A stretch of DNA of 64,000 bases from an uncultured Gammaproteobacteria bacterium (lineage in GTDB: Bacteria; Patescibacteriota; Microgenomatia; Levybacterales; JACOYD01). Below the pieces are notes generated by a model, which had not been told where the DNA came from, did not search any database, and saw only the letters and a list, made by a program, of their open reading frames with translations. The position numbers were made by a program, and so were the translations under genes. Shown in pieces: positions 4,718 through 62,746 of the stretch (position 1 is its first letter; the number at the start of each line of letters is the position of its first letter). The DNA is taken from NCBI GenBank assembly GCA_964445095.1, contig CAYUJR010000002.1:5176-69175 (forward strand), read 5' to 3'.

Positions 4718-4721
4718 AACT

Positions 4722-39864: not shown

Positions 39865-39936
39865 GGACTCGTAGCTCAGCGGTAGAGCGCTGCATTCACA
39901 TTGCAGATGCCAGAGGTTCAAATCCTCTCGAGTCCA
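39865..39936 (+). tRNA. tRNA-Val (anticodon CAC)
   Basis: Acceptor stem GGACTCG/CGAGTCC with discriminator A. D-arm GCTC-AGCGGTA-GAGC. Anticodon stem-loop CTGCA-TTCACAT-TGCAG. T-arm AGAGG-TTCAAAT-CCTCT. 72 nt; CCA not encoded. Confidence 0.85.
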
Positions 39937-39946
39937 CCCGCGCTTT

Positions 39947-40936: not shown

Positions 40937-41834
40937 AGAAGAGACAATAGGTGAGCTATTATCGTCAATACTTCAACAATCTGCGTTGCCAGATGAGGTG
41001 ATTGTTGTTGATGGAGGTTCAACTGACCTGACGGTCAGTAATATCAAATATCAAATATCAAATATCAAATATTTCAAAAGCAGATTAAGACCTTTTATTA
41101 AAAAAAGTAATAGGGCAATAGGTAGAAATTACGGGATTTCCAAGGCAAAAAATGAGATTGTCGCTCTCACCGACGCGGGATGCATTCTTGATAAAAATTG
41201 GTTAAAAAATATTACAACTCCATTCGAGAGTACAGAGGTCGATGTCGTTGCCGGATTTTATCAAGGATTACCGAAGAGTATTTTTGAAAAGTGTCTGGTG
41301 CCTTATGCTCTGGTTATGCCCGATAAGGTTAACCCCAAAACATTTCTGCCCGCTTCACGCTCGATGGCGCTGCGACGATCTATTTGGCAAAGGGCTGGTG
41401 GTTTTCCGGAAGAATTTTCAGATAATGAAGATTATGTATTTGCTCATAAATTAAAGAAAATGCATGCCAAAACTGTTTTTCAGAAAAAAGCGGTGGTTTT
41501 TTGGATGCCCAGAAAAAACTTGATAGAAGCTTTTATGATGTTTTTCAAGTTTGCTAAAGGGGATATGGAGGCCCAAATTGTCAGACCAAAGGTAGTATTA
41601 TTATTTCTGCGCTATATAATCGGACTGACTTTGGTTATACTGAGTATAGAAAGAATTTGGTTACCATCATATTTTTTAATACTAGTCACGGTTTATTTAT
41701 TTTGGGCAATTGGGAAAAATTATCGATATGTGGCTGACTGGCGAGCAATTTTTATCTTGCCACTTTTACAGCTAACAGCAGATACATCTGTTTTAACAGG
41801 AAGTATTTATGGGATATACAAAAGAGGCAATTAA
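40902..41834 (+). CDS. GT-A family 2 glycosyltransferase with C-terminal TM segments
   Basis: VSIVVTVLNEE...DEVIVVDGGSTD (GT2 DxD region). Contains an (ATATCAA)4 array at 41041-41075. Confidence 0.75.
   Translation: MKVSIVVTVLNEEETIGELLSSILQQSALPDEVIVVDGGSTDLTVSNIKYQISNIKYFKSRLRPFIKKSNRAIGRNYGISKAKNEIVALTDAGCILDKNWLKNITTPFESTEVDVVAGFYQGLPKSIFEKCLVPYALVMPDKVNPKTFLPASRSMALRRSIWQRAGGFPEEFSDNEDYVFAHKLKKMHAKTVFQKKAVVFWMPRKNLIEAFMMFFKFAKGDMEAQIVRPKVVLLFLRYIIGLTLVILSIERIWLPSYFLILVTVYLFWAIGKNYRYVADWRAIFILPLLQLTADTSVLTGSIYGIYKRGN
41041..41075 (+). repeat. (ATATCAA)x4 plus a degenerate fifth unit, in-frame in a GT2 gene
   Basis: Encodes SNIKYQISNIKYF. Confidence 0.9.
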
Positions 41835-43020
41835 GGGAATTTCCTGGGTGACTGCTTTTAGGGGAGTCTCCAGAGGAATAGCCTTTACGAGAACCATTAT
41901 TTTAGCCCGTCTTCTAACGCCGTCTCAATTTGGACTGGTCGGTATAGCTACCATTATTTTGGGATTAGTCGAGATGTTGACTGAAACAGGAATTAACATT
42001 TTCCTTGTCCAAGAGAAGAAAATCGACAAATTTTTGGATACAGCCTGGATAATATCTATTATTCGCGGTTTTATTATAGCCATTTTAATTGCCGCAACAG
42101 CTCCTTTAGTTGCTAAATTTTTCAATAGTACCGAGAGTTATCAGTTGCTGTTACTCATCAGTCTGGTTCCTATTATTAGAGGTTTTATTAATCCCGCTAT
42201 AGTTAGCTTTCAAAAAGAACTAGCTTTTGATAGGGAGTTTTGGTTTCGTTTATCTATATTTCTAGTTGATTCGCTGACCGCAATTATTCTAACCTTTATC
42301 ACGCGCTCCGCCACCAGTCTTATTTTCGGTTTTATAATAGGTGCTTTAGTAGAAGTCGCGTTATCATTTCTAGTAGTTTTACCAAAACCCGTATTCCGTT
42401 TTAACCTTTCTCATGCGGGAGAAATTTTTCATAAGGGTAAGTGGGTAACAGCTTTCTCGCTTACCAACTACGCCTTTCAAAATGGAGATAGTGCCGTAAT
42501 TGGTAGATTATTAGGCTCTTTTTCTCTTGGTCTTTATCAGGTCGGTTATAAATTAGCCAATATCCCAACGGAAGTGGTAGATAGCATCTCGCGGGTAACC
42601 TTTCCGGTCTATACCAAGATAGCCGGAGACAAAACTAGGCTAAAACGGGCGTTTTTTAGAACCATCGCCGGGGTGGCTATTCTGACTATTCCCTTCGGCA
42701 TTATTCTATTTTTATTTACCAGAGAGCTTGTTTTATTGTCGTTGGGAGAAAAATGGTTAGAAGTGGTGCCGACTCTTAAAATATTGGCTATTTTTGGAGT
42801 GGTGCGGGCAATTTACGCTTGCGCCTCACCTCTTTTTTTATCGGTCAAAAAACAAAAATATGTGACAGTAGTTACTTTGGTTAGTTTCGGGGGATTGATA
42901 ATTTCCATTATTCCTTTAATATCTCGCTTTGGCATTATCGGAGGAGCACTGTCAGCATTAACCGGCGTCACGCTCGCTTTACCCTTGACTATTTATTTTT
43001 GCTGGAGAATTCTTAAATGA
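41809..43020 (+). CDS. Wzx-like polysaccharide flippase (MOP superfamily)
   Basis: 12-TM protein with a Wzx-type N-terminus (RGVSRGIAFTRTIILARLL...FGLVGI). Confidence 0.7.
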   Translation: MGYTKEAIKGISWVTAFRGVSRGIAFTRTIILARLLTPSQFGLVGIATIILGLVEMLTETGINIFLVQEKKIDKFLDTAWIISIIRGFIIAILIAATAPLVAKFFNSTESYQLLLLISLVPIIRGFINPAIVSFQKELAFDREFWFRLSIFLVDSLTAIILTFITRSATSLIFGFIIGALVEVALSFLVVLPKPVFRFNLSHAGEIFHKGKWVTAFSLTNYAFQNGDSAVIGRLLGSFSLGLYQVGYKLANIPTEVVDSISRVTFPVYTKIAGDKTRLKRAFFRTIAGVAILTIPFGIILFLFTRELVLLSLGEKWLEVVPTLKILAIFGVVRAIYACASPLFLSVKKQKYVTVVTLVSFGGLIISIIPLISRFGIIGGALSALTGVTLALPLTIYFCWRILK

Positions 43021-43766
43021 TAAGCGCTGTTATTTTAACAAAAAACGAAGAAAAAAATATTGAAGTTTGCTTGAAGAGTCTGGATTTTTGCGATGAGATA
43101 ATCGTGATTGATGATAATTCTGCAGATAAGACGGTGGAGTTAGCAAAAAAATCAAAAGCAAAAGTATTTGCTAGGACGCTTAATAATGATTTTTCTCGTC
43201 AAAGAAATTTTGGATTAGAAAAAGCCCACGAGGAATGGGTATTATTTATTGACGCCGATGAAAGAGTATCTCCATCGCTTTGCGATGAAATAACCCAATT
43301 AACTAATAACCCAATAACCCAATGTAATGGATTCTATATCAAGAGACGAGATTTTATGTGGGAAAATGAGTTAAAGTATGGTGAGACTGGAGATATAAAA
43401 TTATTACGATTAGCCAGAAAGGAAGGGGGCAAATGGGAGGGGAGAGTTCATGAGAAATGGAAAGTTAAAGGTAAACTGGGTGAGCTGAAAAATCTCCTGC
43501 TTCATTATCCTCATCAAACAATTACGGAATTTTTGCGAGAGATAAATTTCTACACCGATATTCGAGCTCAAGAACTTTACGAAAAAGGGACCAGCGTATA
43601 CTGGTGGTCAATTATTCTTTATCCTAAGGTAAAGTTTTTCCGAAACTTTTTTGTCAAAAAAGGTTTTCTTGACGGACTGCCGGGGCTAATCCTGGCTCTA
43701 ATGATGAGTTTTCATTCATTTTTAGTTAGAGGCAAATTATGGTTAATGCAGCAAAAGAAAAACTAG
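43017..43766 (+). CDS. GT-A family 2 glycosyltransferase
   Basis: ISAVILTKNEE...IIVIDDNSADKT, with DAD in FIDADE. Contains short AATAACCC repeats at 43291-43322. Confidence 0.75.
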   Translation: MISAVILTKNEEKNIEVCLKSLDFCDEIIVIDDNSADKTVELAKKSKAKVFARTLNNDFSRQRNFGLEKAHEEWVLFIDADERVSPSLCDEITQLTNNPITQCNGFYIKRRDFMWENELKYGETGDIKLLRLARKEGGKWEGRVHEKWKVKGKLGELKNLLLHYPHQTITEFLREINFYTDIRAQELYEKGTSVYWWSIILYPKVKFFRNFFVKKGFLDGLPGLILALMMSFHSFLVRGKLWLMQQKKN

Positions 43767-44935
43767 TAATTATTCTTATTTTAACTTTGGCTTTAGGGCA
43801 GTTAGTTAGAATACCAATAGAATATCAAGGTCTGCAAAGTATTTATATTACTCCTTTTGATCTGATAGCCGTAATATTAGTGACGTTATGGATTATGAGT
43901 AAGCCAAATCTAGCGCAGGCAGAATTAGCTCAACCGATAGCGATTTTTGCCGGTCTGGCTTTGTTATCCCTAGTAGTTAACGCTAGGAATCTTTTATCAA
44001 ATGAGCTTATCGCCTCTTCTCTTTATTTTTTTCGTTGGTTAATGCTAACTTCTTTATATTTTATAGTAAAAGATTTTACTCTGCAATTTAAGAAAAGGTT
44101 GTTGGGGTGGCTAGTATTGAGCGGGATGTTAGTGGTTTTGGCGGGAATAATTCAATATTTTTTCTACCCTGATTTGCGAAATCTTTATTATGCCGGGTGG
44201 GATGAACATCTTTATCGTGTTTTTTCCACCTTTCTTGACCCTAATTTCGTCGGGGCATTTTTTGTGCTTAATTTTATTCTCATGTTAGTATTAGCTCTAC
44301 ACACCAGGAGTGTAGCCTGGAAATTTAGAATACTAGTTATTGGGGCAGTTTTAACTTTGGTGGCAATTTTACTAACACATAGCAGAAGTGCTTACGTGAT
44401 GTTTTTTGTTACCAATATAATGCTACTTTTACTTACTAAAAAAAAGATGCTTTTGATATTTATGGCGGTTTTTATTATTGGAATAATTCTTTTGCCAAAA
44501 AATTTACCCGGCGAGGGAGTTAATCTCGCTCGGACCGCCTCGGTTGCGGCTCGACAACAAAGCATGGAGCGGGCAGTAAAAATTTGGCAAGACCATCCGT
44601 TATTTGGCGTAGGATTTAATGCCTATCGATATGCACAAAAACAATACGGTTTTTTACCGGAGGATAATTGGCAGACGCTTCATTCCGCGGCAGGAACAGA
44701 TAATAGTTTTCTTTTTGTGGCTTCAACAACCGGAACAGTGGGTTTATTATCCTTTTTTTATTTATGGTACTGGGTAGTAAGACTTACCTGGCGGCAAAAA
44801 CAGAGGCAAATTTCCCAAGTTGTGCTGGTTTTGGTGGTGGGAATTTTAGTTAACAGTCTTTTTATAAATAGCCTTTTTTTTGAAAGTATACTGGCCTGGA
44901 TATGGATACTGGTGGGGATTAGGGAGAAAAATTGA
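43739..44935 (+). CDS. O-antigen ligase/polymerase-family membrane protein (Wzy_C/WaaL-like)
   Basis: Polytopic. Carries a THSRSAYV loop motif typical of the O-antigen ligase domain. Confidence 0.6.
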   Translation: MVNAAKEKLVIILILTLALGQLVRIPIEYQGLQSIYITPFDLIAVILVTLWIMSKPNLAQAELAQPIAIFAGLALLSLVVNARNLLSNELIASSLYFFRWLMLTSLYFIVKDFTLQFKKRLLGWLVLSGMLVVLAGIIQYFFYPDLRNLYYAGWDEHLYRVFSTFLDPNFVGAFFVLNFILMLVLALHTRSVAWKFRILVIGAVLTLVAILLTHSRSAYVMFFVTNIMLLLLTKKKMLLIFMAVFIIGIILLPKNLPGEGVNLARTASVAARQQSMERAVKIWQDHPLFGVGFNAYRYAQKQYGFLPEDNWQTLHSAAGTDNSFLFVASTTGTVGLLSFFYLWYWVVRLTWRQKQRQISQVVLVLVVGILVNSLFINSLFFESILAWIWILVGIREKN

Positions 44936-48847: not shown

Positions 48848-49537
48848 TTATTTACTTAAAATTTCAGAATGCATTACTCTAAAGGCCTGTGAGCTTCCGT
48901 CTTTAACAAATATTTCGGGTATCACTCCTAAGGGGGAAAGAGAAAGACTCTGCTTATGATAATCTACTTTAGTAGGTATACCATGGAGCGGAACACTAAA
49001 AGACCCACCAGCTTCTGATTCTAAAGCTGCCGTTACCCCTCCATTAGTAGCTGGTACGTTTATATATGGTTTGCCATCAATTAAAATATTTTCTAGATTT
49101 CTCTTGTCGTTCAAATACACTGCCGTAAAATTGCCGTCCAAACCTGATCGATAAATCAACCACGCTTGCCCTTTTTGATGATCAATTGCTTCCCAGGGGT
49201 TATTAACGATCTCTACTAAAGTACCACTGCCGCCTTTGTATCCCACAGCGGGACCAGTTTGAATATCATCTGAATATGCTGGGGAAGCAAACCATCTTAA
49301 TCTTGTAGCTCCTTTATTAATTGTCACAACTCCTCTAACTATTTCTAATGGTTGTCCAGGTTTTATCCTTTCTCTCATTAGTTCTTGAAATCTAATTGCT
49401 TCTGGGGGTAATTGTTCTTCCTGACGATATGCAAGACATGATGTCACTAGCAACGGAGAAACTACAACTAAACTACCTCCTAGTGAGAGTTTTTGTAAAA
49501 ATTTTCTTCGTGTGCTTCCGCGTTCCAACACCTGCAT
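48848..49537 (-). CDS. Hypothetical exported protein with twin-arginine signal peptide
   Basis: STRRKFLQKLSLGG matches the S/T-R-R-x-F-L-K Tat consensus. Confidence 0.55.
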   Translation of the reverse strand: MQVLERGSTRRKFLQKLSLGGSLVVVSPLLVTSCLAYRQEEQLPPEAIRFQELMRERIKPGQPLEIVRGVVTINKGATRLRWFASPAYSDDIQTGPAVGYKGGSGTLVEIVNNPWEAIDHQKGQAWLIYRSGLDGNFTAVYLNDKRNLENILIDGKPYINVPATNGGVTAALESEAGGSFSVPLHGIPTKVDYHKQSLSLSPLGVIPEIFVKDGSSQAFRVMHSEILSK

Positions 49538-49595
49538 AAGTAGAAGTATTATATCACACTATATCACATCTTGTCAAATAAAATGGTTATTGGCC

Positions 49596-50780
49596 TCATT
49601 TTAACTCAAAAGGTACTCTCACCATAGAATGAGGATTATCCCATATTCCTCGAGAGTAGACCAAAACTCCAGTTCTATCCGTAATTTGATCTGTAGGTTT
49701 ATTTAAAGACCAAAGGCTCGGATTACTGGCCCATAACTGACCTCTTTTATGAGGATATTGCCCTTGAGGAAATTTTAAGATAAGCTTAGCCTCGTCCCAG
49801 GTTAAACCATCGTTTGAAGTAGTTACGCAAAATCCAACATGCGTTTCAAAAACAGCCAGGTATTTACCTAAATAGGTATTATAGCTTACACTAGGGAGTG
49901 CGGCATACCCACTCTCCGCTATATCGGCTGGTATAGGAATAACTGGTGATACAGTAGTGGGGGAAACTTCAACTCCTTTTTGAAAACCATTTTTTGTATA
50001 ATGTTCGAAGGCTCCAACATTATCCCCTTTTACCTCTGTTCTAGAAAGGTGAATTTGATATTCTCGCCCTTCATGAGAAGGCCAATAAATATAATAAACA
50101 TAGACAAATCGCTTATCCCCTTCCTCTTTAATAATCGCACAAGGTTGACCTACTCCAGTAACATTTTTTCCAGGTTGTAATGCATCAGCTGCTTTTAAAG
50201 CAACTCCTTTATCCAACCAATTTTTTCCTCCATCAACTGATTCTAAAATACCAATAGTACTCGTGAAGTTACGATAATCTAAAGAACCATCTCTATTTGC
50301 CCATTGTTCATTGTGGGTTATCCCAAAAAGATGATTAGGATTTTCCTTGTTTAACTGAAGGATGCTTGTAATTGCAGTATATCCATTTCTATATTCCCCC
50401 CCCCTATCAGGGCCAACCACAGGTATGGCTTGTCCTTGCTGGTTACGTTCTCTTGGTATAAATAGACTTCCTTTATCTTCTAGCATGGCGAACGAAGCTG
50501 CATTTCCAGAAACATAATATTCCCGCCTTCCATCGGGAAAAGTTATATAAGGAATATGGCCGTCGGGAGTCCAGTTGATACCATATTTTGACAGCTGAAT
50601 TGGTTCCTCTTTACCAAGCATCATCAAATCATTTTCCGGAGTTTCAAATCCTCCTCTGGTTGACCGTTCATTAACAAGCAGTGCGCCTCGTCCTAGAGCA
50701 ACAGCTCCCAATCCAATCGCTCCCCATTTAATTGCAGTTCGTCGAGTTATTTGAAGTCGTTTAGGTGTATCTTCTGCCAT
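49596..50780 (-). CDS. Tat-signal exported protein, beta-propeller/glycosidase-like (function unknown)
   Basis: ITRRTAIKWGAIGLGAVALG Tat-type leader. Rich in W/Y/G, as in propeller folds. Confidence 0.45.
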   Translation of the reverse strand: MAEDTPKRLQITRRTAIKWGAIGLGAVALGRGALLVNERSTRGGFETPENDLMMLGKEEPIQLSKYGINWTPDGHIPYITFPDGRREYYVSGNAASFAMLEDKGSLFIPRERNQQGQAIPVVGPDRGGEYRNGYTAITSILQLNKENPNHLFGITHNEQWANRDGSLDYRNFTSTIGILESVDGGKNWLDKGVALKAADALQPGKNVTGVGQPCAIIKEEGDKRFVYVYYIYWPSHEGREYQIHLSRTEVKGDNVGAFEHYTKNGFQKGVEVSPTTVSPVIPIPADIAESGYAALPSVSYNTYLGKYLAVFETHVGFCVTTSNDGLTWDEAKLILKFPQGQYPHKRGQLWASNPSLWSLNKPTDQITDRTGVLVYSRGIWDNPHSMVRVPFELK

Positions 50781-53700
50781 ATTTTATTAAATACATTATA
50801 GCCGATATTATGAGCAATAGAAAGCCTAGATACTCGAGGTATTGGGGAAGATAAAGAATGACGAGGCTGGAAGCTGGAGGCTGGAAGCTGGAATTATTCA
50901 GCACCCATCCATTAGCCCAGTTGTTAACTAGGACGTGGTTTTTAATTTCTCTACCAAACACCATTGGTAGTATTTGACATTTGACATTTGACATTTGACA
51001 TTGATACGCTTTCCATCCTGTGTCATAAGACTGGGAAAGAACAAGGACGGGATTATTAATTGTTAAATTGTTAAATTGCTCAATTGTTATGGAATAAAGA
51101 CTGGGGTTGGGGTGATTGACCTCGAGCTCGGTTAATCTGACAGGAAACTGGTTAGTGCTTGATTTTTTCAAAACCAGACCGGTTAGGAATTTATAGGGGA
51201 TGGGGTTGACAGTAATTTTACCCAGTTCATTAGTGGATTTTTCTTTACCGATTGAGACATTGTCAAAATGGAGGACGTATCCTACCCCGTCTTTTTCCAT
51301 GGGAGGCTGGATAAAATAGCTAGACGCTAAATGCTTGCTGCTAGACGCTGGTAAATAAGTTTCAATGTCGGCACGTCTCGAGTTGGGGTTTTCCAGCCAA
51401 AAAAGAATAGGGCGACCAGAGATGTTTTTAGTTTCCGCTGTAATAAGGTAGGCCATGTCATGCGTCAAATTGGGTAGATTAAAAGCGGTACAGTTACTGT
51501 TATTTATTAACGTCAATCGCAAGAAGCCGCGGACAACATTGTCGCAATTGACAGTAGTCGGTTCAATCTCGGCACTGAAGTAGCCGCCGGCTTTGGGAAC
51601 TTTGACCTCGATATTTTTGCCGTCAAAAAAGACATCAAGCGGCACGGTTTTTGTTTGAGACAAGTCATTGGGGTCAACCCAGGTTAAGATTTGACTACTT
51701 GGTGGTGGCACTTCTAAAACATAGTTGTCGCTACCGGCAGGTAGAGTTTTACTAAAGGCAAAATAATCGCCCCTGTCTTCTACCGTAAATTCTAAATCTT
51801 GTTGGCTCCTGCCCGTAAATAAACTCCTAAATGGATAGTAAAAACTGGAAGCTGGAGATTGGATGCTAGAAGCTAGATAATAACCATTATCATTAAAGGC
51901 GCGGTCGTAATTATTCCATTTGTAAATGGGGCCGGTAGTAGCGAGATTTTCTGCCAAAAAGACAAAGTTGTTAACCGGCGCTTCAAGATTTACTCGATAA
52001 ACTTTAATTTTGCCTGCTTGCGCAGGCGAGCCGAATTGTTGGGTTAGGGTGACTTTATTTGAATTTTTAAGCGTCTCTTCCAATTCATCCAGATAAAGCG
52101 CCTTGGAAGAGGGAGGATTAATAATATTTTCATCAACCAGCAGCCACCTGATTTGATATTTTTCAAGGACATTTTCAAGTAACGCAGGATTTTTAGAATA
52201 AACAGCATAAGAAGCTTCCCAATAATAATTCTCATTATATGGAGACCACCGGTCAAATTCCCGATCGAGCAACGGTTGTTTTAAACCAAACCACAAAAAT
52301 CCTGCACCTTCATACTGCCAATCATAGTAAGCCCAGCCCCAAAAAGTATGGACGGGAAATTCGGCAATTCTGCCTGTTGTTTCCTGCTTGTTTAACCAGT
52401 TAAACATAGCAAAATACTCCTTTGGTATTTGTACTTTCATGCTATGACTGATTAAGTTTCCTTTAAATGCTGGCCACATATAATAAACAAGGGCAATTAA
52501 TATAGTTAAAGCTTGTAGTAAATAAAGTATTCGTTCTTTTTTTACCCTTTTAATTAATAGTCCAGTTAGCCAATTCAAGGCAACTGCAAAATAAACGGTG
52601 TAAGCAAAGAGTAGTAAAATAGAAAATTTAGTAAAGGGAAAGCGGAGAGCCTCTCTAAAAAAGGGGACCTCATTTTGTAAAAAGGCAAAAATTTCTCTAA
52701 AAAGCGGCAGATCATTAGCAATAAATAAAAACGAGACAATAAAAACAGGTAAAATTGCTAAACCATACTTTTCTTGTCTGCGAAATACTATAGCTATTCC
52801 TCTTAAAACTAAAGTAAAAATACCGTAAGCAATAAAATTTGCAATCGGGCTATTTAGATGTGGAGTCCACTCATCAAATAAACTAATAGATTCTTGTTTT
52901 TTGTCATCATATTCTCCCCAGTCAAATAAAAAGTTTTTCAAAATTGCCGTGTCTTTGATGGTGCCAAATTGTCTGCCAGTTAAAAAAGCTTTTTCCGAGA
53001 ATTGAGTATGAATTTTTGAGTCGACTACATCCTTGCCGTGACTTGCAACAAAATAAATATTAGGCAATAACCAGAAGCTATTTAATACGAGAGTGGTCAG
53101 TAGAATTAACAAAGCTCGCCGAATAGTCTCCTTGAAAGAGAAAAAGGCTAAAGTACTAATATATAATAGTAAACCCAAAAAATAGGCATAAAAAAGCGTG
53201 GCGGTGTGGGCCATAGAGGTTGACAGAATAGTTATTAATGAGAAAAATATCAGATTTCTGCTTGTTCCATTCTCTAAATATTTACTGGTAAAAAGAAATA
53301 GCCAGGGAAGGGTGGCAAAGTGGGTGGCAAACATCTCCAGCGGTACATAATAATGTTGAAGGGTAGCTAGATTTAAAAGATATAGCAGAGCTCCACTAAA
53401 AGCGGCTGTTTGGCCAGCTATGCGGGGCAAGTTTTTTAAAATAACCCGTTCTAGAAAAAAGTAAGTCCCCAGCGTGCCAGCAATTAGAGTCAAGAAAAAA
53501 TAGCCGTAGCGCAAAAATGAGTCGGGAAGAATAAGCGAAGATAAATAATAAATAAACATTCGGGGAAGCTCCGAAGCATGGGCTTGCGAAGCAACAGCCC
53601 CCAGTCCTTGATGTTCTTGCCAAACACCAAAGAAAATTCGTTTAAAATAAAGTCCAAAGTCAAACTCCGGATGTAGCGTATCCCAACCGGAAAGATAAGT

Positions 53701-53793
53701 GCCAGGCGAATAATTTACCCAACAAATAATAACAGTAAGAATAAATAATGCTAAAGGAAAAATATTTCTTTTAAATATTGGAGATATTCGCAT
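50761..53793 (-). CDS. Large (1010 aa) polytopic membrane protein with huge extracytoplasmic domain; GT-C-like (YfhO/AftD-like) candidate
   Basis: About 12 N-terminal TM helices, then roughly 550 aa soluble, then a C-terminal TM. Carries three heptamer-array inserts (50866-50893, 50973-51000, 51846-51877). Confidence 0.5.
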   Translation of the reverse strand: MRISPIFKRNIFPLALFILTVIICWVNYSPGTYLSGWDTLHPEFDFGLYFKRIFFGVWQEHQGLGAVASQAHASELPRMFIYYLSSLILPDSFLRYGYFFLTLIAGTLGTYFFLERVILKNLPRIAGQTAAFSGALLYLLNLATLQHYYVPLEMFATHFATLPWLFLFTSKYLENGTSRNLIFFSLITILSTSMAHTATLFYAYFLGLLLYISTLAFFSFKETIRRALLILLTTLVLNSFWLLPNIYFVASHGKDVVDSKIHTQFSEKAFLTGRQFGTIKDTAILKNFLFDWGEYDDKKQESISLFDEWTPHLNSPIANFIAYGIFTLVLRGIAIVFRRQEKYGLAILPVFIVSFLFIANDLPLFREIFAFLQNEVPFFREALRFPFTKFSILLLFAYTVYFAVALNWLTGLLIKRVKKERILYLLQALTILIALVYYMWPAFKGNLISHSMKVQIPKEYFAMFNWLNKQETTGRIAEFPVHTFWGWAYYDWQYEGAGFLWFGLKQPLLDREFDRWSPYNENYYWEASYAVYSKNPALLENVLEKYQIRWLLVDENIINPPSSKALYLDELEETLKNSNKVTLTQQFGSPAQAGKIKVYRVNLEAPVNNFVFLAENLATTGPIYKWNNYDRAFNDNGYYLASSIQSPASSFYYPFRSLFTGRSQQDLEFTVEDRGDYFAFSKTLPAGSDNYVLEVPPPSSQILTWVDPNDLSQTKTVPLDVFFDGKNIEVKVPKAGGYFSAEIEPTTVNCDNVVRGFLRLTLINNSNCTAFNLPNLTHDMAYLITAETKNISGRPILFWLENPNSRRADIETYLPASSSKHLASSYFIQPPMEKDGVGYVLHFDNVSIGKEKSTNELGKITVNPIPYKFLTGLVLKKSSTNQFPVRLTELEVNHPNPSLYSITIEQFNNLTINNPVLVLSQSYDTGWKAYQCQMSNVKCQILPMVFGREIKNHVLVNNWANGWVLNNSSFQPPASSLVILYLPQYLEYLGFLLLIISAIMYLIKYGRRYT
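50866..50893. repeat. (GCTGGAR)x4 heptamer array inside the 1010-aa membrane-protein gene
   Basis: The minus-strand reading TTCCAGC TTCCAGC CTCCAGC TTCCAGC encodes SSFQPPASSL. Same family as the glmS array. Confidence 0.9.
50973..51000. repeat. (TTTGACA)x4 heptamer array inside the same gene
   Basis: The minus-strand reading (TGTCAAA)4 encodes QCQMSNVKCQ. It is one transition away from the GT2 ATATCAA unit. Confidence 0.9.
51846..51877. repeat. Degenerate heptamer array (CTGGAAG CTGGAGA TTGGATG CTAGAAG) inside the same gene
   Basis: The minus strand encodes ...SSIQSPASSF... Confidence 0.6.
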
Positions 53794-53801
53794 ATTGTAA
53801 G

Positions 53802-54716
53802 TTAAGTTTTTATTGCACTGGGTGTACTAGGTATTATTGGATTTTGGAATGGAGTTGTTAAAATTTTAGTGTATATAAAGTAATAAAGATTATTAACAGT
53901 CTGCGGTGGGAAAAATTCCGATAACGCTTCAGCGAAAAAATTATAACCGTGAAGTGCGTATTTTATTATATCAAAAACAAATCGACTATCACGATATCTT
54001 TCTAAGTCTGAAGGCGTCAGGTTATCGCCGCTTCTTCCTCTGCTAGGACGACCTAAAGTTGACGACATATCTGAGTAGAACTTACATTTTTCTTGTACTT
54101 CAGGCTCCAGTCTATCACAACCGCCGCTTTCTAGAGCTCGTTTATTAAAAATACTGTATTTTTCTTCAATCCTTTGATATAACTCGCCCTCCGGATTTCT
54201 TAACTCTGAAAGTTTTTTACCTAATATTCTCTCAACGTTTAGTACCCATGGCGTCCAACCTGCAGGGCTAAGACCATCAGGATGATTTCTTGGTATCCAG
54301 AGATCCACCAACTTTTCAAGAAATGTTTCATGAAATCGAAATTGTGGATAGTTTTCAGGTAAAAATTGGTCTGGGAATATTTGTATAGCATACTCGTGTG
54401 GAGATAAATATTCACCTCTATTTTCCCTAATTATTTTTAAACGCAAACCCTTAGATTCGTTTCTGTAAAAGTGACGGGGAATTCTGTCTAAAGATGATTC
54501 CAATAGATCGAGCTCCTGTTTATGCCAGTAGCCTGCACGAACATCTGCAGAAAAATTAATATCAAATCTTATTGCAATCTCACGTTCTAGTTGTTGCACT
54601 GTTTGAAGCTCTGTAGGTTCTCTAAAGACATGAAAATTCTCTACGGCTTTTCCTACAGCTAAACCTGCCAAACTTGCTGATGCTCCAATAATTAACTCTC
54701 TTCGTGTGAATGGCAT
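53802..54716 (-). CDS. Hypothetical exported protein with Tat-type signal
   Basis: FTRRELIIGASASLAGLAVG leader. Confidence 0.5.
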   Translation of the reverse strand: MPFTRRELIIGASASLAGLAVGKAVENFHVFREPTELQTVQQLEREIAIRFDINFSADVRAGYWHKQELDLLESSLDRIPRHFYRNESKGLRLKIIRENRGEYLSPHEYAIQIFPDQFLPENYPQFRFHETFLEKLVDLWIPRNHPDGLSPAGWTPWVLNVERILGKKLSELRNPEGELYQRIEEKYSIFNKRALESGGCDRLEPEVQEKCKFYSDMSSTLGRPSRGRSGDNLTPSDLERYRDSRFVFDIIKYALHGYNFFAEALSEFFPPQTVNNLYYFIYTKILTTPFQNPIIPSTPSAIKT

Positions 54717-54733
54717 AGACGAAGTATAGCATA

Positions 54734-56308
54734 CTATAAGTCTTTTATCAAGGTGATTTCATAGATGGATAAATTATCTCCATCAGGTAAGGAGTATTGT
54801 TTAATTAGCTTTACTTTCTCAGGGTAAGAATGAATTAAATATTCTTTTAATTGTTTTAGGATAGATAAATGACGTAGCACACCTTCTGGGCCAAAGCTTT
54901 CATTTGGAATCAAAACGTAATCAAAATAAGCTAAATATGCCTTCATTTTTGATGTTTCAGTAAACGGGTTTAAATTGTAAGGAGCCCTAAATTTTATGGA
55001 AGTATTTCTCTGTTTTCTCTGATGTAGTTCTAAATTCATTGCATTAAGCTCACTTTTATCGACTAAAACTAAAACTTTTATGAGCTCATTCGAATTTATT
55101 GAGCTTAAGTCAGCAATAATTTGCTTGTGGGGCCAGACCGTTGTTTCATGTTTCGGGGCCAAATATTGACTGGTGTTTTTACCCAAGTTAATATAGTCAA
55201 TCCAACCGACTATAGGAAGCTTAACTGCTCTTTGATAGTCAACTATTTTGGGATTGAAAGGAAAGCCAAAAGACAGACTAAAGAAATATAGAAAAAAATA
55301 TAGGCCAACGAATAGACTTATCAAAATACCCCAAAATTTTATAGCATTAATTATTTTTAATAACAGAAAGCCAATAGCCATTGAGGCAAAAGGTAATATA
55401 GGTAAAATATAGCGCGGGTCCTTATTGGGAATAAAGGTAAAAATGAGATAAATAGAGAATATAACTACGGTAATTAAAATACCCTTTTCTCTTTTGGTAT
55501 AAATAAGCACCGGAATAGCTACCAAAAGTAGGATTATTCCTAGCCAGGTTAAATGAAAGTTAACTAAAATCGACAAATAATAAGTAAAATTTGGTATACT
55601 TAATAGCGCCTGAGGATCAACTGCTTCAGCTGTAAAACTGACTTTTGCCCGGTTTAATATATTAGTAAAATTAATAAGATACCAGGGTAAACTGATTAAG
55701 GCAACTGTGCCTAACGATATGAACAAGTTTTTTAGATGAATTTTTTTAAGCGAAATTATAATAGGAATTAATAAATAAACTATTGCTACCCATTTTGTTA
55801 GCAGAGCAAAGCTTAAGAAAATTGTTGCTAATAATGAAGTTCTTAGATTCGCAAATTTTTTTGATTTTTCCAGGAAATATAAACTACCTAAAATCAAGGC
55901 TATCAGCGGTATTTCTAGTAAAAAATTCCGGGACTGGCTATAGACAACAGGTAAAAAAGAGAAAAAAAGAGCTGAAAATATGGCTATTTTCCCATCATTA
56001 AAAACTTCTTTGGTGTAAAGATATAAGAAACTTATTGCCATAAGGAAAAACCCAGTTACCACTAAAGGCCCAATTAATAGCAGTGGTCCAGTAAAAATCA
56101 TTATTAATGCAACTATAAGATGTGCTAATGGTGGATAATAATCCGAAATCTGGAAAAAATTAACTTGACCTTGACCTTTAAAGAAATCTACGAGGTCAAA
56201 AGAGATTAGAGTATGGCCTGCTTGATCCCAAGCTAAAGGTGATTTATCAAGTAAGATCCAAATTAAATTAGCCAGAAAATGAAAAGCAAGAAGTAGAAAC
56301 AACGGCAT
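54734..56308 (-). CDS. GT-C fold glycosyltransferase (ArnT/PMT family-39/83-like)
   Basis: Polytopic, with an N-terminal loop ...DKSPLAWDQAGH... resembling the GT-C catalytic loop. 524 aa. Confidence 0.55.
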   Translation of the reverse strand: MPLFLLLAFHFLANLIWILLDKSPLAWDQAGHTLISFDLVDFFKGQGQVNFFQISDYYPPLAHLIVALIMIFTGPLLLIGPLVVTGFFLMAISFLYLYTKEVFNDGKIAIFSALFFSFLPVVYSQSRNFLLEIPLIALILGSLYFLEKSKKFANLRTSLLATIFLSFALLTKWVAIVYLLIPIIISLKKIHLKNLFISLGTVALISLPWYLINFTNILNRAKVSFTAEAVDPQALLSIPNFTYYLSILVNFHLTWLGIILLLVAIPVLIYTKREKGILITVVIFSIYLIFTFIPNKDPRYILPILPFASMAIGFLLLKIINAIKFWGILISLFVGLYFFLYFFSLSFGFPFNPKIVDYQRAVKLPIVGWIDYINLGKNTSQYLAPKHETTVWPHKQIIADLSSINSNELIKVLVLVDKSELNAMNLELHQRKQRNTSIKFRAPYNLNPFTETSKMKAYLAYFDYVLIPNESFGPEGVLRHLSILKQLKEYLIHSYPEKVKLIKQYSLPDGDNLSIYEITLIKDL

Positions 56309-56424
56309 ACAAAAAATATATCATACTATAAGTCTTTCGTCAAGAAGCGATAGGGGAGTTATGCAAACAACCCCGTTTAAAATTTAAAACGGGGTTGCTG
56401 TACTACGATATTTTGGGCAGCGGG

Positions 56425-57420
56425 TTAATAATTCTTAAACTTGGCAGTCCAGCCTTTACCAGCATTTGCAATAGCTTCTTGCAAATTGGCTCCCCGGCCC
56501 GCACTATGTTCCCACACGCCAAAAGCTCTGGTATTTAGATCCAGATAGACAATTGTTACTCTACTGCAACCTTCAAGTCCGCAATTTGAGTCGCTTCTAT
56601 GTGAAGTTGCTACCATTTGCTTAGCTTGACCTTCAGACCAGAAAGCACTATTTTCTGCCTCACTACCTCCCGGATGTCTCATACCTAAGGTGGCCGCAGG
56701 TTGGTAGTCGGTTAACCTTACTATGGTATTTCTTGGGCTATCTTGCTTGCCATCTGGGTAAAGACCTCTAACAACAATTAAGTAGTTTCGACCCTTTTCT
56801 GCTGGTGCTTCGACTTTCATATCAGTACCAGCGATTTCAAAACTTAATTGAGGAGCGCTAAACACCGCCCATCCGCCTTCTGAAGCCAGATATGATGCTG
56901 GTGGGTCAGTAACAAATGAGTGTTGGCTATCTGGACTAAATGGTCTAATATGACCTTTGCTATCCCACATAGTTTGCCACCCATTAGGATTATCTCCCCA
57001 GGGATTATTCTTGCTTTTAGATTCAAAATCTGGTCCCACCCATAAAAAGCCAGGTTCTGCGGCAAAAGCTTCCATGCCCTGACCAAGGCTAGATTTAAAA
57101 CTACCCCGGGCCAGTTCTACGTTACTGGCGCTGTCAGGAATACCAACTGTTTTTACCCCACCCCTATCAACCATCTGAACAGGGTCTTTTTGGTCCGGTG
57201 ATGGAGCAGCCCCAGCTCTATCCGGGAGTGGTGCTCTGCCTCCGCCAGATTGAGTTCTGCTTCTATTTTCTCCAGCTGCGTCTGTCTTTGAAGCTCCTGA
57301 TAATAACCATGCTACACCAGCACCACCACCAAGAGCGCCTAATCCACCAGCTGCTACCAATCCAAGCAGTCTCCTTCTTGATGGCTGAGGTACTTGTCCT
57401 AGTTGTCTTTCTTGTGCCAT
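56425..57420 (-). CDS. Hypothetical exported protein with Tat-type signal
   Basis: SRRRLLGLVAAGGLGALGG leader. Its 5'UTR (GGGGGTGAAAGAT) is the same 13-mer as in the next gene. Confidence 0.55.
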   Translation of the reverse strand: MAQERQLGQVPQPSRRRLLGLVAAGGLGALGGGAGVAWLLSGASKTDAAGENRSRTQSGGGRAPLPDRAGAAPSPDQKDPVQMVDRGGVKTVGIPDSASNVELARGSFKSSLGQGMEAFAAEPGFLWVGPDFESKSKNNPWGDNPNGWQTMWDSKGHIRPFSPDSQHSFVTDPPASYLASEGGWAVFSAPQLSFEIAGTDMKVEAPAEKGRNYLIVVRGLYPDGKQDSPRNTIVRLTDYQPAATLGMRHPGGSEAENSAFWSEGQAKQMVATSHRSDSNCGLEGCSRVTIVYLDLNTRAFGVWEHSAGRGANLQEAIANAGKGWTAKFKNY

Positions 57421-57455
57421 TTATCTTTCACCCCCTTTTCCGTTATCAATCCTTA

Positions 57456-58034
57456 TTACGGATAAACGACTCTAGTTTCTCGAATTTTTCCAGTTTGACC
57501 ATCAATAACAACAACGTCAACCGGACCGGTCAGTCCACCACCGTCCCGACCATTTTTATTCGCGGGATCTCTTAGAGAACTAACCCTTTCATCTATAAGT
57601 TCTTGTAACTGGTTTCCATCTAACCGCGTACTGCCATTTGGTTTCGGAGTAACTCCTACCCAATTATATTTTGCTCTTACAACTGGATTAACCTCTGCTC
57701 CTCCATTTGATAAACCAACAGGACCTTCGGCCAATATTAGACTAGCGCGATCCTGACTAGCCCCTTTCCCTACGAACTCTACTCCACGACCGGCAGAGTC
57801 TGTAAAAGTAAAATCCCCAGTAGTAACAGCCACGACATTGCCATCAGCTGTGCTAAGTCCTAATGGTACCTTGTCACCGGGATTTCCTTCTGGAATACCT
57901 ACTGCAGAATAACCCCACTTAATCCACGAACCATCTGCCCGTGCTTCCCTTGACCCTAATCCGACAGCTGCTAATCCTGCGCCTGTTGCTATTGCTGCTC
58001 CTGCCTTTAACGCTTCACGTCTACTAAAACCCAT
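57456..58034 (-). CDS. Hypothetical exported protein with Tat-type signal
   Basis: FSRREALKAGAAIATGAGLAAVG leader. Same GGGGGTGAAAGAT RBS context as 56425-57420. Confidence 0.55.
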   Translation of the reverse strand: MGFSRREALKAGAAIATGAGLAAVGLGSREARADGSWIKWGYSAVGIPEGNPGDKVPLGLSTADGNVVAVTTGDFTFTDSAGRGVEFVGKGASQDRASLILAEGPVGLSNGGAEVNPVVRAKYNWVGVTPKPNGSTRLDGNQLQELIDERVSSLRDPANKNGRDGGGLTGPVDVVVIDGQTGKIRETRVVYP

Positions 58035-58049
58035 AATCTTTCACCCCCT

Positions 58050-58676
58050 TCATCTTTTCTTTACTCTTACTAAATAAACACCACTTGTCAAAGCGAGAAG
58101 AGAGAGAACGGTAAATAATATAGTATGTTCTGGGCCGGTGGGCGGAAGAACCGGAGCGCCTTTTTGGGGAAGAACTTTGCGCTCCAGACAAACTTGGGCG
58201 GTGTCGCGGTCTTTATCCTCGCCGCTTACCGCTTCTGCCACATTGACTACGCATACTACGCTTTTGTCTTTAGGAAATTTATCAGCTCCGGCCACTTTGA
58301 CTTTTATCTCCTGCTCTTTTTCTTCGCCCACTTTCAAGTCTTTAATTTGAAATTGGGGATTACCGTCAGTTTTTAAGAGGTCCGGCAGAATATCTAAAAC
58401 ATTGATGGCGTCAAAAGTGTTGTCTCCCACATTTTTAACTTTAATTTTAAAAGTAACTTGTTCGCCAGGGGAGAATTTGTGGTCGTTAAGACCCAGGTTA
58501 TCCACAAACTTTTTATTGCGGGGATCAAAAACTTCTTTATTAACCTGCAGTTTACCGGTTCTAATGCAAACTTCTTTTCCTCCATATTGAGTTTCGCAAC
58601 GAACAGCCGCCAGCGATGGTTTTACCAGAAAAAAACCCGCCAACATAATTATTAATAATATAGAAAAGGTCTTCAT
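58050..58676 (-). CDS. LPXTG-anchored cell-wall surface protein (sortase substrate)
   Basis: Sec signal peptide. C-terminal LPPTG, then a hydrophobic stretch and a KKR tail. Upstream promoter: TTGACA (plus-strand 58737-58742, reverse complement), 17 bp, then TATAAA (58714-58719). Confidence 0.8.
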   Translation of the reverse strand: MKTFSILLIIMLAGFFLVKPSLAAVRCETQYGGKEVCIRTGKLQVNKEVFDPRNKKFVDNLGLNDHKFSPGEQVTFKIKVKNVGDNTFDAINVLDILPDLLKTDGNPQFQIKDLKVGEEKEQEIKVKVAGADKFPKDKSVVCVVNVAEAVSGEDKDRDTAQVCLERKVLPQKGAPVLPPTGPEHTILFTVLSLLALTSGVYLVRVKKR

Positions 58677-58761
58677 AAAAACAAAAACCTACCATTTAGG
58701 CAGATTAAGAACTTTTATAGCAATAATTTATTAGTTTGTCAAGTAAGAGCTTTGTAAGAGT

Positions 58762-59557
58762 TTAGTCTGTCAATACGGGCTCCGCGACAATTATTAATCT
58801 CTTCCAAGTAGTGCCGGGCGGCCAGCAGGTTTGTAAAATCAGGCGCTGGCTGCCGTTACTGCTTTTTGTTAACCAAGAAGTGTCATTGGCTGCGGTAACA
58901 TGTTTTTGCGAAACTTTATATTTGTAGGCTTTGTTTAGAAAAAAAACATAAATTTCATCATTTGGCTCTAGCTCCCGTAGCAGATAAAAAATAGCATTAT
59001 ATTGGGAAACGTTCCAGGCCACATCGGTTGAATGAGCAAACAGATAAGTTGCGCCATCTATGCCGGGAAAGCGGGAGCCGGCCGCGTGAGCCACTCCTCT
59101 CATTAATGCCTCCTTCATGGCCTCCGGATTACTGGGGTCAACGTTAGAAATAACTGGGGCTCGAGCATTAATTTTAGGAATATACAAAGAAAAGTTAGTA
59201 TTTTGGATGTTAAATTGAGTAGCTAATTTTTGCGTTTCATAAAAATCTTGATTAATGGCCGCCTCATATTCATTTTGAGCTAGTAAAAAGGAGAAACCGC
59301 TAAAACTTTGTTGTTGGGGAGCGACCTTGGTTATTTGACCGCTTCTATAATTTAATTCGGCAGACACCACCGGCCAAAAAGTGATTAAAATTCCGGCCAG
59401 AGCCGCCACTATCAATCCATGGCCAAACAGCCGGACAATCCGCCAGGTCAGACGGCGGATAGTTTCCCTTTTCTCCTCAAAAATCACCCCGCTGGTTTTT
59501 AGCATAAAGGTAAATTCAATTATAGCACGTTGAAGCCACAATTGTTTAACTTGCATT
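58762..59557 (-). CDS. Sortase (C60 cysteine transpeptidase)
   Basis: N-terminal TM anchor, His in YLFAHST, catalytic LILQTC (TLxTC-type). Adjacent to the LPPTG protein gene. The ORF is open to 59823; start placed at ATG 59557. Confidence 0.6.
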
Positions 59558-59590
59558 TTACTTAAACCTATAGTATACTTATTTACAAAT

Positions 59591-61438
59591 ATGAATGAAC
59601 GTTCTACCGCAGTTGAGCAGTTTAGATTGTCAAGAAGAAGTCTTTTGGGTTTAGGAGCAGCGTCAGCATTAGGTGGGATAGCTGCTGGACCAATTACAAG
59701 AGTATTACAATACGGAGATAGTATTCGATTTATGTTGGATAGAAGGTCGTGGAACACAGAAGAAAATTCATACTTTCCGCCAGTTCCAGACAATATATTA
59801 TCTAGAGAAGCATCTGACCGCATTCTTGATGCATTAAATCTCGTAGCAGAAAATCAGTATTCTCATACAATTACACCAGAAGCATTTCAGGTAATTATTC
59901 AACGCCCCGCCAGAATTGCTAGTTTATACTTCCACCCTAACGAAAATAAAACCCTGCAAGAAACAGATAGGGATTTTGCTGATCATTGTGTACGATTTTT
60001 TACTGCTATGAAGAGCCAGGCTGATTTTATGGAAACGGATTTTATCGCCACCTTGCTAATGTACCAAGTTTCAGGTGACGCCAATTCAACCCAACGAGCA
60101 TTTAATAAAGATATCATGGAAGAACGAGTACGTGTTGCATTAAATATAGCAAGGAAGGAACTTGGACCTATCGCATCAGATGCGCTGATCAATATTTTGA
60201 GAGAAACAGAATTATTAGATTTTGCAGTACCATATTATGCAATGCCTCGGTTGGAGGGAGTTGTAACTATGGGCATTCATGATATAGAGACGGTTATAAC
60301 AGCACGTTCCCTAAGAGATTTTGAACAAACGTTGCCAGATAAATGGATACAAGTAGCTCATTATCTAAAAACTCGTGCTCCAAAATTTTTTTCACAATAT
60401 GGTAGTTACGCTGAAATGTATGACCAGTTTGAGGCAGAATCGGAACAGCTTAAACAAGACTTAATGAGCTTACCTCAATTTGGTGAATATCTTAGTAGAT
60501 TATATACACCTGAAGTTATGCGAAGAATTCTCACGACGGATGATCAGGTAGATGCCTATCAATTACAAAGAACCACACTTTTTTGGGCGAATGTTTCAGA
60601 GATTAATGTCAAGAATGGGTTTGCGATGCAAGCGCCTGGTAGAAAAAGAACTGAACAGCAAGCGCTTGAGCGCACCCTTCAACAATATGTGCAAGCAGGA
60701 TCACCAATCCCTTTTTTCTTAGACCAAATTTTAAACCCCAAAATACTACAAATGATTTCGGCCGATGCTAATCGTGGTAATACGACAGCCCAGGAGCTCC
60801 TTGCTAGGTGTAAAAAGTTTGAAGCTGATGGCGAGCGACTAATTGTTGCAGATCGAGCAATAATTGCGGCACTTGCCGAAGAACAGACTGAACAAGATAT
60901 GCAATTCCAACTTGTTACAGGGCAAGCATATGTACGGATGTTACTCCATGATGCATACACATTTACTCATAGAAAATCCCCTAAAGATGGGAAAATTAGG
61001 TATGATAATTCTGACGAGCTTGCTTATGATGCGTTTATGGCAAATGGGAACCGTGAAAATTCACCAACATATCAGCTTGCAGGAACGCGGCCTCTGCATC
61101 GTGCGACATTACCCTTTAGAACACCCGATATAGAATTTGATACAATGCAAGACTTTATTGAACAAGTTTATAGGCAGGTTGAAACGCTAGATCCACAAAT
61201 GGACTTTAAGAAATTTTCTAATTATTTATTTCTACTACTTATTGAGCGTTTTCTAGAACCATTTATAGGAATAAAAAATTACTATCCATCTATAGACCAG
61301 GAAAGCGCAAGAAGGGCATCAGTATTTCTTCATAAAGCAGAGGCATTCGGTGTAGATAGAAAAATAATCACGCCACCACATTGCAACTGGATGCGTGCTA
61401 TTGAAGCAACTACGGGGTACATTAACACTATGCAGTAA
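59591..61438 (+). CDS. Large hypothetical exported protein with Tat-type signal
   Basis: LSRRSLLGLGAASALGGIAAG leader. 615 aa. TATACT sits 11 nt before the ATG. Confidence 0.55.
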   Translation: MNERSTAVEQFRLSRRSLLGLGAASALGGIAAGPITRVLQYGDSIRFMLDRRSWNTEENSYFPPVPDNILSREASDRILDALNLVAENQYSHTITPEAFQVIIQRPARIASLYFHPNENKTLQETDRDFADHCVRFFTAMKSQADFMETDFIATLLMYQVSGDANSTQRAFNKDIMEERVRVALNIARKELGPIASDALINILRETELLDFAVPYYAMPRLEGVVTMGIHDIETVITARSLRDFEQTLPDKWIQVAHYLKTRAPKFFSQYGSYAEMYDQFEAESEQLKQDLMSLPQFGEYLSRLYTPEVMRRILTTDDQVDAYQLQRTTLFWANVSEINVKNGFAMQAPGRKRTEQQALERTLQQYVQAGSPIPFFLDQILNPKILQMISADANRGNTTAQELLARCKKFEADGERLIVADRAIIAALAEEQTEQDMQFQLVTGQAYVRMLLHDAYTFTHRKSPKDGKIRYDNSDELAYDAFMANGNRENSPTYQLAGTRPLHRATLPFRTPDIEFDTMQDFIEQVYRQVETLDPQMDFKKFSNYLFLLLIERFLEPFIGIKNYYPSIDQESARRASVFLHKAEAFGVDRKIITPPHCNWMRAIEATTGYINTMQ

Positions 61439-62674: not shown

Positions 62675-62746
62675 GGAATATACCAGCTTTTTTTATTTAA
62701 TTCAAGAAAATCTACTAGTTAGCTAATGTGGTATAATCCAGGTAAA

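Follow-up and report, generated by a model that had tools for sequence, protein, structure and literature searches.

Why are six proteins with leaders of the twin-arginine translocation (Tat) type encoded side by side in one small region of a genome, and what would they do at the cell surface? The question is raised by an island of ten open reading frames (ORFs) at positions 48848-61438 of the 64-kb stretch of DNA analysed here (contig CAYUJR010000002.1, hereafter the window). All ten ORFs were found where a preliminary description of the locus had placed them, with one correction concerning the start of the sortase gene (Table 1). The FtsZ protein of the window falls into a 90%-identity cluster with a Candidatus Microgenomates protein, and the nearest relatives are named Candidatus Levybacteria or Microgenomates. 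To our knowledge, almost nothing is known of the surface chemistry of the Candidate Phyla Radiation (CPR), whose members are tiny, mostly uncultured bacteria thought to live attached to other cells. The region probably represents a conserved Microgenomates-type (CPR) module for cell-surface assembly as elaborated in one lineage, with twin-arginine (RR) proteins exported by Tat. The conserved core of the module consists of a sortase and a CLIPPER-domain protein, a secreted, beta-rich slot protein (here a member of the 331-amino-acid (aa) family), a C-type glycosyltransferase (GT-C) of the PMT/ArnT kind, a giant AftD-like GT-C and, often, a 615-aa protein. These are known kinds of systems in a new variation and not categorically new ones; the unusual features are the local concentration of Tat-type leaders and one confidently modelled domain without a known relative.

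Leader peptides and the export route

The motif S/T-R-R-x followed by two hydrophobic residues lies at positions 4-16 in all six proteins for which it had been claimed. The striking density of such leaders was also borne out, with six of the ten island genes carrying one, compared with one of the 55 other genes of the window (Fisher p = 1.7e-5); the latter encodes an FtsQ-like membrane anchor at 28337. In the window proteome (20,450 positions), the pattern [ST]RR.[FLIVMA][LIVMAF] has eight occurrences; seven fall within the first 30 residues, where 0.11 were expected. The hydrophobic regions of the six leaders are Ala/Gly-rich, with uncharged runs of 12-27 residues, and their maximal 12-residue Kyte-Doolittle means are 1.6-2.2; the general secretory (Sec) signal of the LPPTG protein reaches 3.1 and the FtsQ anchor 3.6. 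The 192-aa leader carries a basic residue ahead of its AxA-type cleavage site (SREARA/D), and the 229-aa leader, which combines TRRKFLQ with a terminal lipobox (LVTS/C34), looks like a Tat-type lipoprotein signal.

The homologues of these proteins point in the same direction. In 68 RR-type leaders across the homologue families, S or T stands at position -1 (43/68), F at +2 (39), L at +3 (42) and K at +4 (21), which gives S/T-R-R-x-F-L-K, the canonical consensus of Tat signals; the leaders are thus Tat-like by sequence. Members of the 394-, 331- and 192-aa families are split between RR leaders and leaders of the classical Sec, lipoprotein or anchor kinds. Within three families (p = 0.01, 0.0009 and 0.065), leaders of the RR type were less hydrophobic than the others. 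The Pfam model TAT_signal (PF10518) matched 3/17, 5/74 and 1/12 members of homologue families, and the homologue P0002 is annotated by NCBI as a twin-arginine signal protein. In the 615-aa family, the first Arg changes only to Lys (KR in L013 and L015; L-numbers denote related loci from other genomes or metagenomes, 20 of which were compared), and the second Arg is invariant.

Several observations weigh against Tat export. None of the leaders reached the TIGR01409 cut-off of 16.7 (16.2 for the 229-aa and 13.3 for the 192-aa protein, the other four not being reported), and PF10518 was not reported for any of the six proteins in the Pfam scan. The full F-L pair is present in one leader of six and K at +4 in two; the uncharged run of the 394-aa leader, 12 residues long, is borderline; and several leaders have no clear AxA cleavage site. 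Since homologues readily use Sec-type, lipoprotein or anchor leaders, Tat is not intrinsically needed by the cargo. No tatA or tatC gene was found by regular expressions and phmmer (Escherichia coli and Bacillus subtilis queries) in the 64-kb window or the 20 related loci, the rest of the genome lying outside the search, and the KEGG Tat module was scored incomplete in all freshwater CPR classes (supplement of PMC9166423). All this would be expected if the leaders were ordinary Sec signals or N-terminal anchors with a chance Arg-Arg pair, in a bacterium with no Tat system that exports the proteins unfolded via SecYEG; the module as such would stand. We regard this explanation as unlikely, though to be taken seriously, because seven of the eight motif occurrences are N-terminal and six of these lie in one cluster, because homologues keep the full S/T-R-R-x-F-L-K motif down to the K at +4, whose conservation would serve no purpose in a Sec signal, and because, on homologous cargo, hydrophobicity is systematically lower in RR-type than in Sec-type leaders. 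Moreover, TatA and TatC have been reported for the class Microgenomatia (PMC9166423). A Saccharibacteria genome with a complete Tat system was reported to have four predicted Tat substrates in total (PMC6031116); otherwise, only general statements were found in the literature on Tat or sortase modules in CPR.

Judged from the leaders, functional Tat targeting of the RR proteins has a better than even chance. As all six non-anchored exported proteins bear twin-arginine-type signals, they would most likely cross the membrane already folded, through a minimal TatA/TatC translocase whose genes would lie elsewhere in the genome. Minimal translocases of this kind are known from Gram-positive bacteria, for example TatAd-TatCd of B. 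subtilis with its substrate PhoD. The island leaders share with Tat signals the S/T-R-R-x-hydrophobic-hydrophobic motif and the weakly hydrophobic, Ala/Gly-rich h-region, and one of them (192 aa) has a basic residue before AxA and another a lipobox, as in Tat lipoproteins. The island differs from known Tat systems in that no translocase genes lie near the substrates, the profile scores are below threshold, the cargo has no cofactor-binding domains, and Sec-type leaders are used elsewhere in the families. The preliminary description had suggested export of folded or cofactor-containing proteins and their glycosylation at the surface. The leaders agree with the export part, nothing was found that suggests cofactors, and glycosylation of the RR proteins themselves is one of several possibilities. 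Because the same families carry Tat- or Sec-type leaders, leader type should track tatC across genomes; if it does, this would show swapping of export routes during genome reduction.

The leader-coding DNA of some genes is also alike. Over 72 nucleotides (nt), identity was 0.56 for the 394/304-aa pair (50673-50744 with 54636-54707), compared with 0.38 (+/-0.05) after codon shuffling, and 0.60 for the 331/615-aa pair (57310-57381 with 59630-59701), compared with 0.43 (+/-0.05). Some leaders of the window may therefore share ancestry or have been exchanged.

Table 1. Genes of the island and neighbouring features of the window
Feature	Position	Strand	Basis
229-aa exported orphan, leader TRRKFLQ with lipobox	48848..49537	-	leader inspection, TIGR01409, HMMER search
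394-aa RR-leader protein, TRRTAIK, five-bladed propeller, GH183/DUF4185-like	49596..50780	-	Pfam, model
1010-aa AftD-like GT-C	50761..53793	-	sub-threshold Pfam, architecture, homologues
304-aa RR-leader orphan, TRRELII	53802..54716	-	leader; no family match
524-aa PMT/ArnT-type GT-C	54734..56308	-	Pfam PMT_2 and PMT above threshold
331-aa RR-leader protein, SRRRLLG	56425..57420	-	large unannotated family
192-aa RR-leader protein, SRREALK, ARA/D site	57456..58034	-	small family
208-aa DUF11/CLIPPER LPPTG surface protein, Sec-type signal	58050..58676	-	Pfam, NCBIfam
Sortase, probably 247 aa	58762..59505 (listed ORF 58762-59823)	-	Pfam Sortase
615-aa RR-leader protein, SRRSLLG	59591..61438	+	rare family
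Histidine kinase of a two-component system	61490-62674	-	Pfam
Response regulator with bPH_2 domain	62726-63673	+	Pfam
Polysaccharide cluster: GT4, GT2 (two C-terminal transmembrane segments), Wzx-type flippase, second GT2, Wzy/O-antigen-ligase-like	39947..44935	+	Pfam, NCBIfam, transmembrane prediction

Conserved core and lineage-specific additions

In nine loci of other genomes or metagenomes, an AftD-like GT-C of 1000-1260 aa is accompanied by subsets of the CLIPPER LPXTG protein, the slot protein, the PMT-type GT-C, the 615-aa family and the sortase. The gene for the GT-C is divergently transcribed from one of the 615-aa family in L012. The 615-aa family, GT-C, a secreted 312-aa protein and CLIPPER are found in L013; a sortase-like protein, the 615-aa family, GT-C, PMT_2 and the 331-aa family in L014; and a histidine kinase, CLIPPER, a 403-aa protein, PMT_2, GT-C and the 615-aa family in L015, all on one strand with overlapping gene ends. 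L016 comprises the 331-aa family, a family 2 glycosyltransferase (GT2), a 545-aa protein (without a Pfam or BLAST match to PMT_2), GT-C and CLIPPER, and L017, from a 55% GC genome, has CLIPPER, the 331-aa family, PMT_2, GT-C and GT2. An SLH protein, CLIPPER, the 331-aa family, PMT and GT-C are collinear on one strand in L018, and L019 contains a DUF4185-like protein, a sortase, CLIPPER, a 311-aa protein and GT-C. The preliminary description had named the keeping of the cluster by relatives as a check and had missed the conserved core itself; its reading of the region as a cell-envelope cluster is supported by the two GT-C-type transferases and the sortase with its LPPTG substrate. The island is not a chance grouping; it is a real, non-random and conserved envelope module.

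The window adds four genes to this scaffold, all of them with RR leaders: the 192-aa gene lies between the CLIPPER and 331-aa genes, the 304-aa gene separates the two GT-C genes (adjacent to one another in L014, L015, L017 and L018), and the gene for the large GT-C is followed by those for the 394- and 229-aa proteins. These extra RR genes are lineage-specific additions to the conserved core. A close relative, L008, lacks the 192-aa gene, as mapped by blastn. Alignment of L008:1-980 with window positions 57172-58128 showed that L008 retains the last part of the LPXTG gene at 83% nt identity and, at 80% nt and 73% aa identity, the leader and linker of the 331-aa protein. The 331-type leader of L008 is joined to an unrelated passenger domain and followed by a paralogous 390-aa gene, which looks like swapping of passenger domains behind a conserved leader.

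A recent foreign origin of the RR genes, for example from high-GC, Tat-rich Actinobacteria or Chloroflexi, with the leaders as relics of the donor, was considered in view of the GC content at 56-58 kb (0.44, compared with about 0.37-0.40 nearby), the Ala/Gly-rich composition of the 331- and 192-aa proteins, the occurrence of the 331-aa family in the 55% GC genome of L017 and the mosaic nature of the locus, as seen from L008. Such an origin is highly improbable. The GC content at third codon positions (GC3) of the six RR genes is 0.25-0.30, compared with a host mean of 0.33 +/- 0.065, the extra GC coming from first-position Ala/Gly codons; with GC3 host-like, a foreign origin inferred from GC content was rejected. 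Furthermore, every family has its closest relatives among CPR or Microgenomates-type sequences, and the core module is syntenic across low-GC relatives.

The two-component system next to the island may regulate the cluster, the association being weak. A homologue of the histidine kinase (30% identity) flanks the module in L015. The response regulator has a membrane-associated bPH_2 domain in place of a DNA-binding output domain. In Blackburnbacteria (L005-L007, around 10619-12195), a homologue of the 192-aa protein lies beside a 394/395-aa protein and a response regulator.

Glycosyltransferases, sortase and the proposed mechanism

The 524-aa protein passed the Pfam thresholds for PMT_2 (30.0 vs 26.1) and PMT (27.2 vs 22.7). 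It has at least nine transmembrane segments, and its first loop contains the motif WDQAGH (W-D-E-A-G-H in L014); homologues were found in L014, L015, L017 and L018. The 1010-aa protein is composed of about seven N-terminal transmembrane segments, an outside region of about 540 residues and a C-terminal segment at 978-996. In its first loop (W37-D38-x-L-H-P-E43), W37, D38, H41, P42 and E43 are invariant across four homologues; two of four homologues were matched by GT-C_AftD (best E = 1.7e-5), and homologues with 33-46% identity over the full length occur in L012-L019. Its architecture is AftD-like, with an N-terminal multi-spanning domain, an acidic loop, an outside domain and a C-terminal segment.

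Extracytoplasmic glycosylation by a GT2 polyprenyl-phosphate sugar synthase and a GT-C is known from actinobacterial protein O-mannosylation (Ppm1/Pmt) and from systems of the ArnC/ArnT and CsbB/YfhO types. The island resembles them in the 524-aa protein, and in relatives the GT2 proteins encoded beside the GT-C pair resemble ArnC-, AglJ- or dolichyl-phosphate hexose transferases. It differs in having two unlike GT-Cs in tandem and in GT2 matches that stay below equivalog thresholds. The GT2 genes beside the module in L008, L016 and L017 have their best resemblance to dolichyl- or undecaprenyl-phosphate sugar transferases, also below threshold. In the window, the nearest GT2 genes are 7-10 kb from the island in the Wzx/Wzy cluster, and this upstream polysaccharide cluster is a possible source of lipid-linked sugar donors. 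The only tRNA gene of the window (tRNA-Val, anticodon CAC, 39864-39939) lies 8 bp ahead of the GT4/GT2/Wzx/GT2/Wzy genes. Genes for UbiA-family prenyltransferases were observed a few kb from module genes at L017:1398-3787, next to an FAD-dependent oxidoreductase, and at L002:15600-17616, next to a GT4 gene of the MraY/WecA type.

None of the Tat-like proteins had been thought to contain a recognisable domain. This does not hold for the 394-aa protein, which is a distant DUF4185 relative, similar to glycoside hydrolase family 183 (GH183), with a five-bladed beta-propeller of the GH183 type. The first 20 nt of its gene overlap the end of the GT-C gene, and the protein contains an Asp-box (SVDGGKNW); in sequence searches of the PDB, the family matched only the Asp-boxes of sialidases. 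PF13810 (DUF4185) was matched at E<=0.01 by nine of 17 family members (best 9e-7). An Asp in the first blade (D73, TPDGH) is invariant, as are E158 and E312, and a DUF4185-like gene lies beside the sortase and GT-C genes in L019. Characterized members of GH183 are the endo-D-arabinanases AraH1/AraH2 and EndoMA1 of the mycobacterial arabinan machinery (PMC10115798, PMC10509167). In EndoMA1, the nucleophile Asp33 and the acid/base Asp51 are 18 residues apart (PMC10509167). The 394-aa protein resembles GH183 in having an invariant Asp in the first blade and differs from it in that the Asp at +18 is not conserved. The invariant E158 and E312 suggest themselves as alternative catalytic candidates, that is, a different catalytic set.

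The 208-aa protein is a sortase substrate. It has a Sec-type signal and one DUF11/CLIPPER domain and ends in LPPTG, 21 mostly hydrophobic residues (PEHTILFTVLSLLALTSGVYL) and VRVKKR, with a Gram_pos_anchor score of 22.4 (cut-off 20). CLIPPER homologues were found in L013 and L015-L019. The CLIPPER domain often forms an internal isopeptide bond (PMC12617251). The sortase (Pfam Sortase, E = 6e-21) has an N-terminal membrane anchor, and its catalytic Cys lies in LQTC, where sortase A has TLxTC. It probably starts at M107 (59505), as indicated by a -10/-35-like site at 59548-59519, the 239-aa orthologue in L019 and the overlap of the listed ORF with the 615-aa gene. The division and cell wall (dcw) cluster of the window includes Mur ligases and a FemAB gene (20506-21639, within the mur cluster), which implies a Gram-positive-type wall with cross-bridges, the usual attachment point of sortase substrates. 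The pair shares with sortase-anchored CLIPPER proteins (PMC12617251) the Sec signal, the CLIPPER Ig-like domain, the LPXTG-type sorting signal, the hydrophobic stretch, the basic tail and the adjacent membrane-anchored sortase. It differs from such adhesins in that the protein is a short one-domain form and not a long multi-repeat one, in a sortase that fits none of the known classes, and in its position within a glycosyltransferase module.

CLIPPER domains are typical of adhesin stalks and pilins (PMC12617251), and the cluster could be a sortase-assembled pilus or adhesin locus, with the CLIPPER protein as a pilin polymerised by a class C-like sortase, the GT-Cs glycosylating the fibre and the RR proteins acting as accessory or tip factors. 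In favour of this, the best sortase models are those of class D (SrtD) and class C, with nearly equal scores, there is a weak match to the RrgB isopeptide domain, two CLIPPER paralogues flank the sortase in L019, and an SLH-domain protein adjoins the module in L018. However, all of the sortase class models are far below threshold, at about 50 bits (NCBIfam: SrtD, 51.9 vs 140; class C, 51.2 vs 160; class D, 49.3 vs 165; class E also below), neither a pilin motif nor a second sortase was identified, the GT-C pair is a constant feature of the module loci, most of which lack the sortase, and the GH183-like enzyme is left unexplained. A pilus locus thus appears rather improbable.

For a glycan-assembling surface module with Tat-exported RR proteins, the following mechanism is proposed. 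Cytoplasmic GT2 enzymes would load sugars onto polyprenyl phosphate, and the two GT-C enzymes would transfer them outside the membrane to a wall glycan or to Ser/Thr/Pro-rich linkers, the small enzyme priming and the large one extending. The GH183-like propeller would trim or remodel the glycan, and the sortase would fix the CLIPPER protein via LPPTG to peptidoglycan. The 331- and 615-aa proteins would be extracytoplasmic partners, and all six RR proteins would reach the outside via TatAC. Certain results count against the glycan part of this proposal. The GT-C_AftD match of the 1010-aa protein (residues 57-592) is below threshold (14.7 vs 26, E = 0.0075), and no sequence relative was found in the PDB with the 1010-aa family profile. 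The PF13810 score of the 394-aa protein (23.8) does not reach the gathering score of 39.5, the second catalytic Asp of GH183 is replaced, with Ser-Gly-Asn at +18 to +20 in most members of the 394-aa family, and in L002, L004 and L020 the DUF4185-like gene does not lie near the module. No acceptor, donor sugar or glycan was identified in the analysis.

The 1010-aa protein shares with the mycobacterial GT-C arabinofuranosyltransferase AftD the N-terminal membrane domain, the large outside domain and the C-terminal segment, and among Pfam families it relates best to GT-C_AftD. The island differs from the mycobacterial arabinan machinery in that both Pfam matches remain below gathering scores, no decaprenyl-phospho-arabinose genes were identified, and a CPR bacterium is not a mycolate actinobacterium. 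Speculatively, the core set might represent a previously undescribed CPR machine for building and remodelling a surface layer of glycan or glycoprotein, furanoside in type (arabinan- or galactan-like), with outside components, including the 331-aa family with a new fold, delivered folded by Tat. If so, Tat would be a main route of envelope biogenesis in some ultra-small bacteria, and if the glycan were furanoside-based, arabinan-like wall chemistry would extend beyond Actinobacteria. The module offers concrete targets in the tandem GT-Cs, the GH183-like hydrolase, the large secreted family with a confident model and no structural or Pfam relative, and the rare 615-aa partner.

Unannotated RR proteins and flanking genes

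For the five RR proteins other than the 394-aa one, sequence searches of the PDB gave no real relatives, nor did they for the 615-aa, 192-aa and GT-C family profiles. An exhaustive HMMER search was made against 1.84 billion cluster representatives. Among the best 150 of 190 matches, the 229- and 304-aa proteins found only themselves and are, on this evidence, orphans; Pfam, NCBIfam and PDB sequence searches likewise gave no match for the 304-aa protein. The 229-aa gene is immediately preceded, at 49577-49548 on the minus strand, by a perfect match (12/12) to a sigma-70-type promoter (TTGACA, 18 nt, TATAAT and the TG of an extended -10). A 242-aa protein with a Tat-type lipoprotein leader (SRRTFMK...LSGC) is encoded next to a 331-family gene on a 592-kb contig (L016:9088-9816); kinship of the 229-aa orphan with it was rejected, as only the leaders are alike.

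In the 331-aa protein, a disordered linker leads into a beta-rich domain of about 250 aa. Its model is confident and has no PDB or Pfam match; the protein belongs to a large unannotated family in which the motif NCGxxGCS is conserved. Many members carry Pro/Thr-rich linkers like those that Pmt enzymes glycosylate. Two candidate extensions of the family were rejected: a 331-like domain fused to a 192-like domain in the C-terminal extensions of P0146 and P0167, to which the 331-family profile gave no match, and the slot proteins of 311, 312 and 345 aa (L019, L013 and L012), which share an N-C...G-C motif and had an hhalign probability of 1.2%.

The 192-aa family includes eleven representatives, one of them from Candidatus Blackburnbacteria, and has no Pfam or PDB match. 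The 615-aa protein has no transmembrane segment beyond the leader and likewise no Pfam or PDB match for its family, which comprises two homologues among 5.8 billion clusters and three from locus scans; its gene adjoins that of the GT-C in L012, L013, L014 and L015. The only two GTDB-representative genomes with this family (L013 and L014) are labelled uncultured Gammaproteobacteria and uncultured Pseudomonadales, yet contain sortase-like and LPXTG-type genes and a CPR-like module at 40-46% GC, so that the labels could be due to mis-binning or mislabelling.

Two further features were observed outside the island. A secreted 173-aa protein with a Sec signal is encoded inside the mur cluster at 8002-8523; its gene has an unusually high GC content (0.52), and the protein is 31% Ala+Gly and has no Pfam match. 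At 3875-6230, immediately past lexA and the end of the dcw cluster that carries ftsI, a restriction-modification pair (N4/N6 DNA methylase and MvaI/BcnI-family endonuclease) is accompanied by a protein with a weak, sub-threshold match to HEPN.

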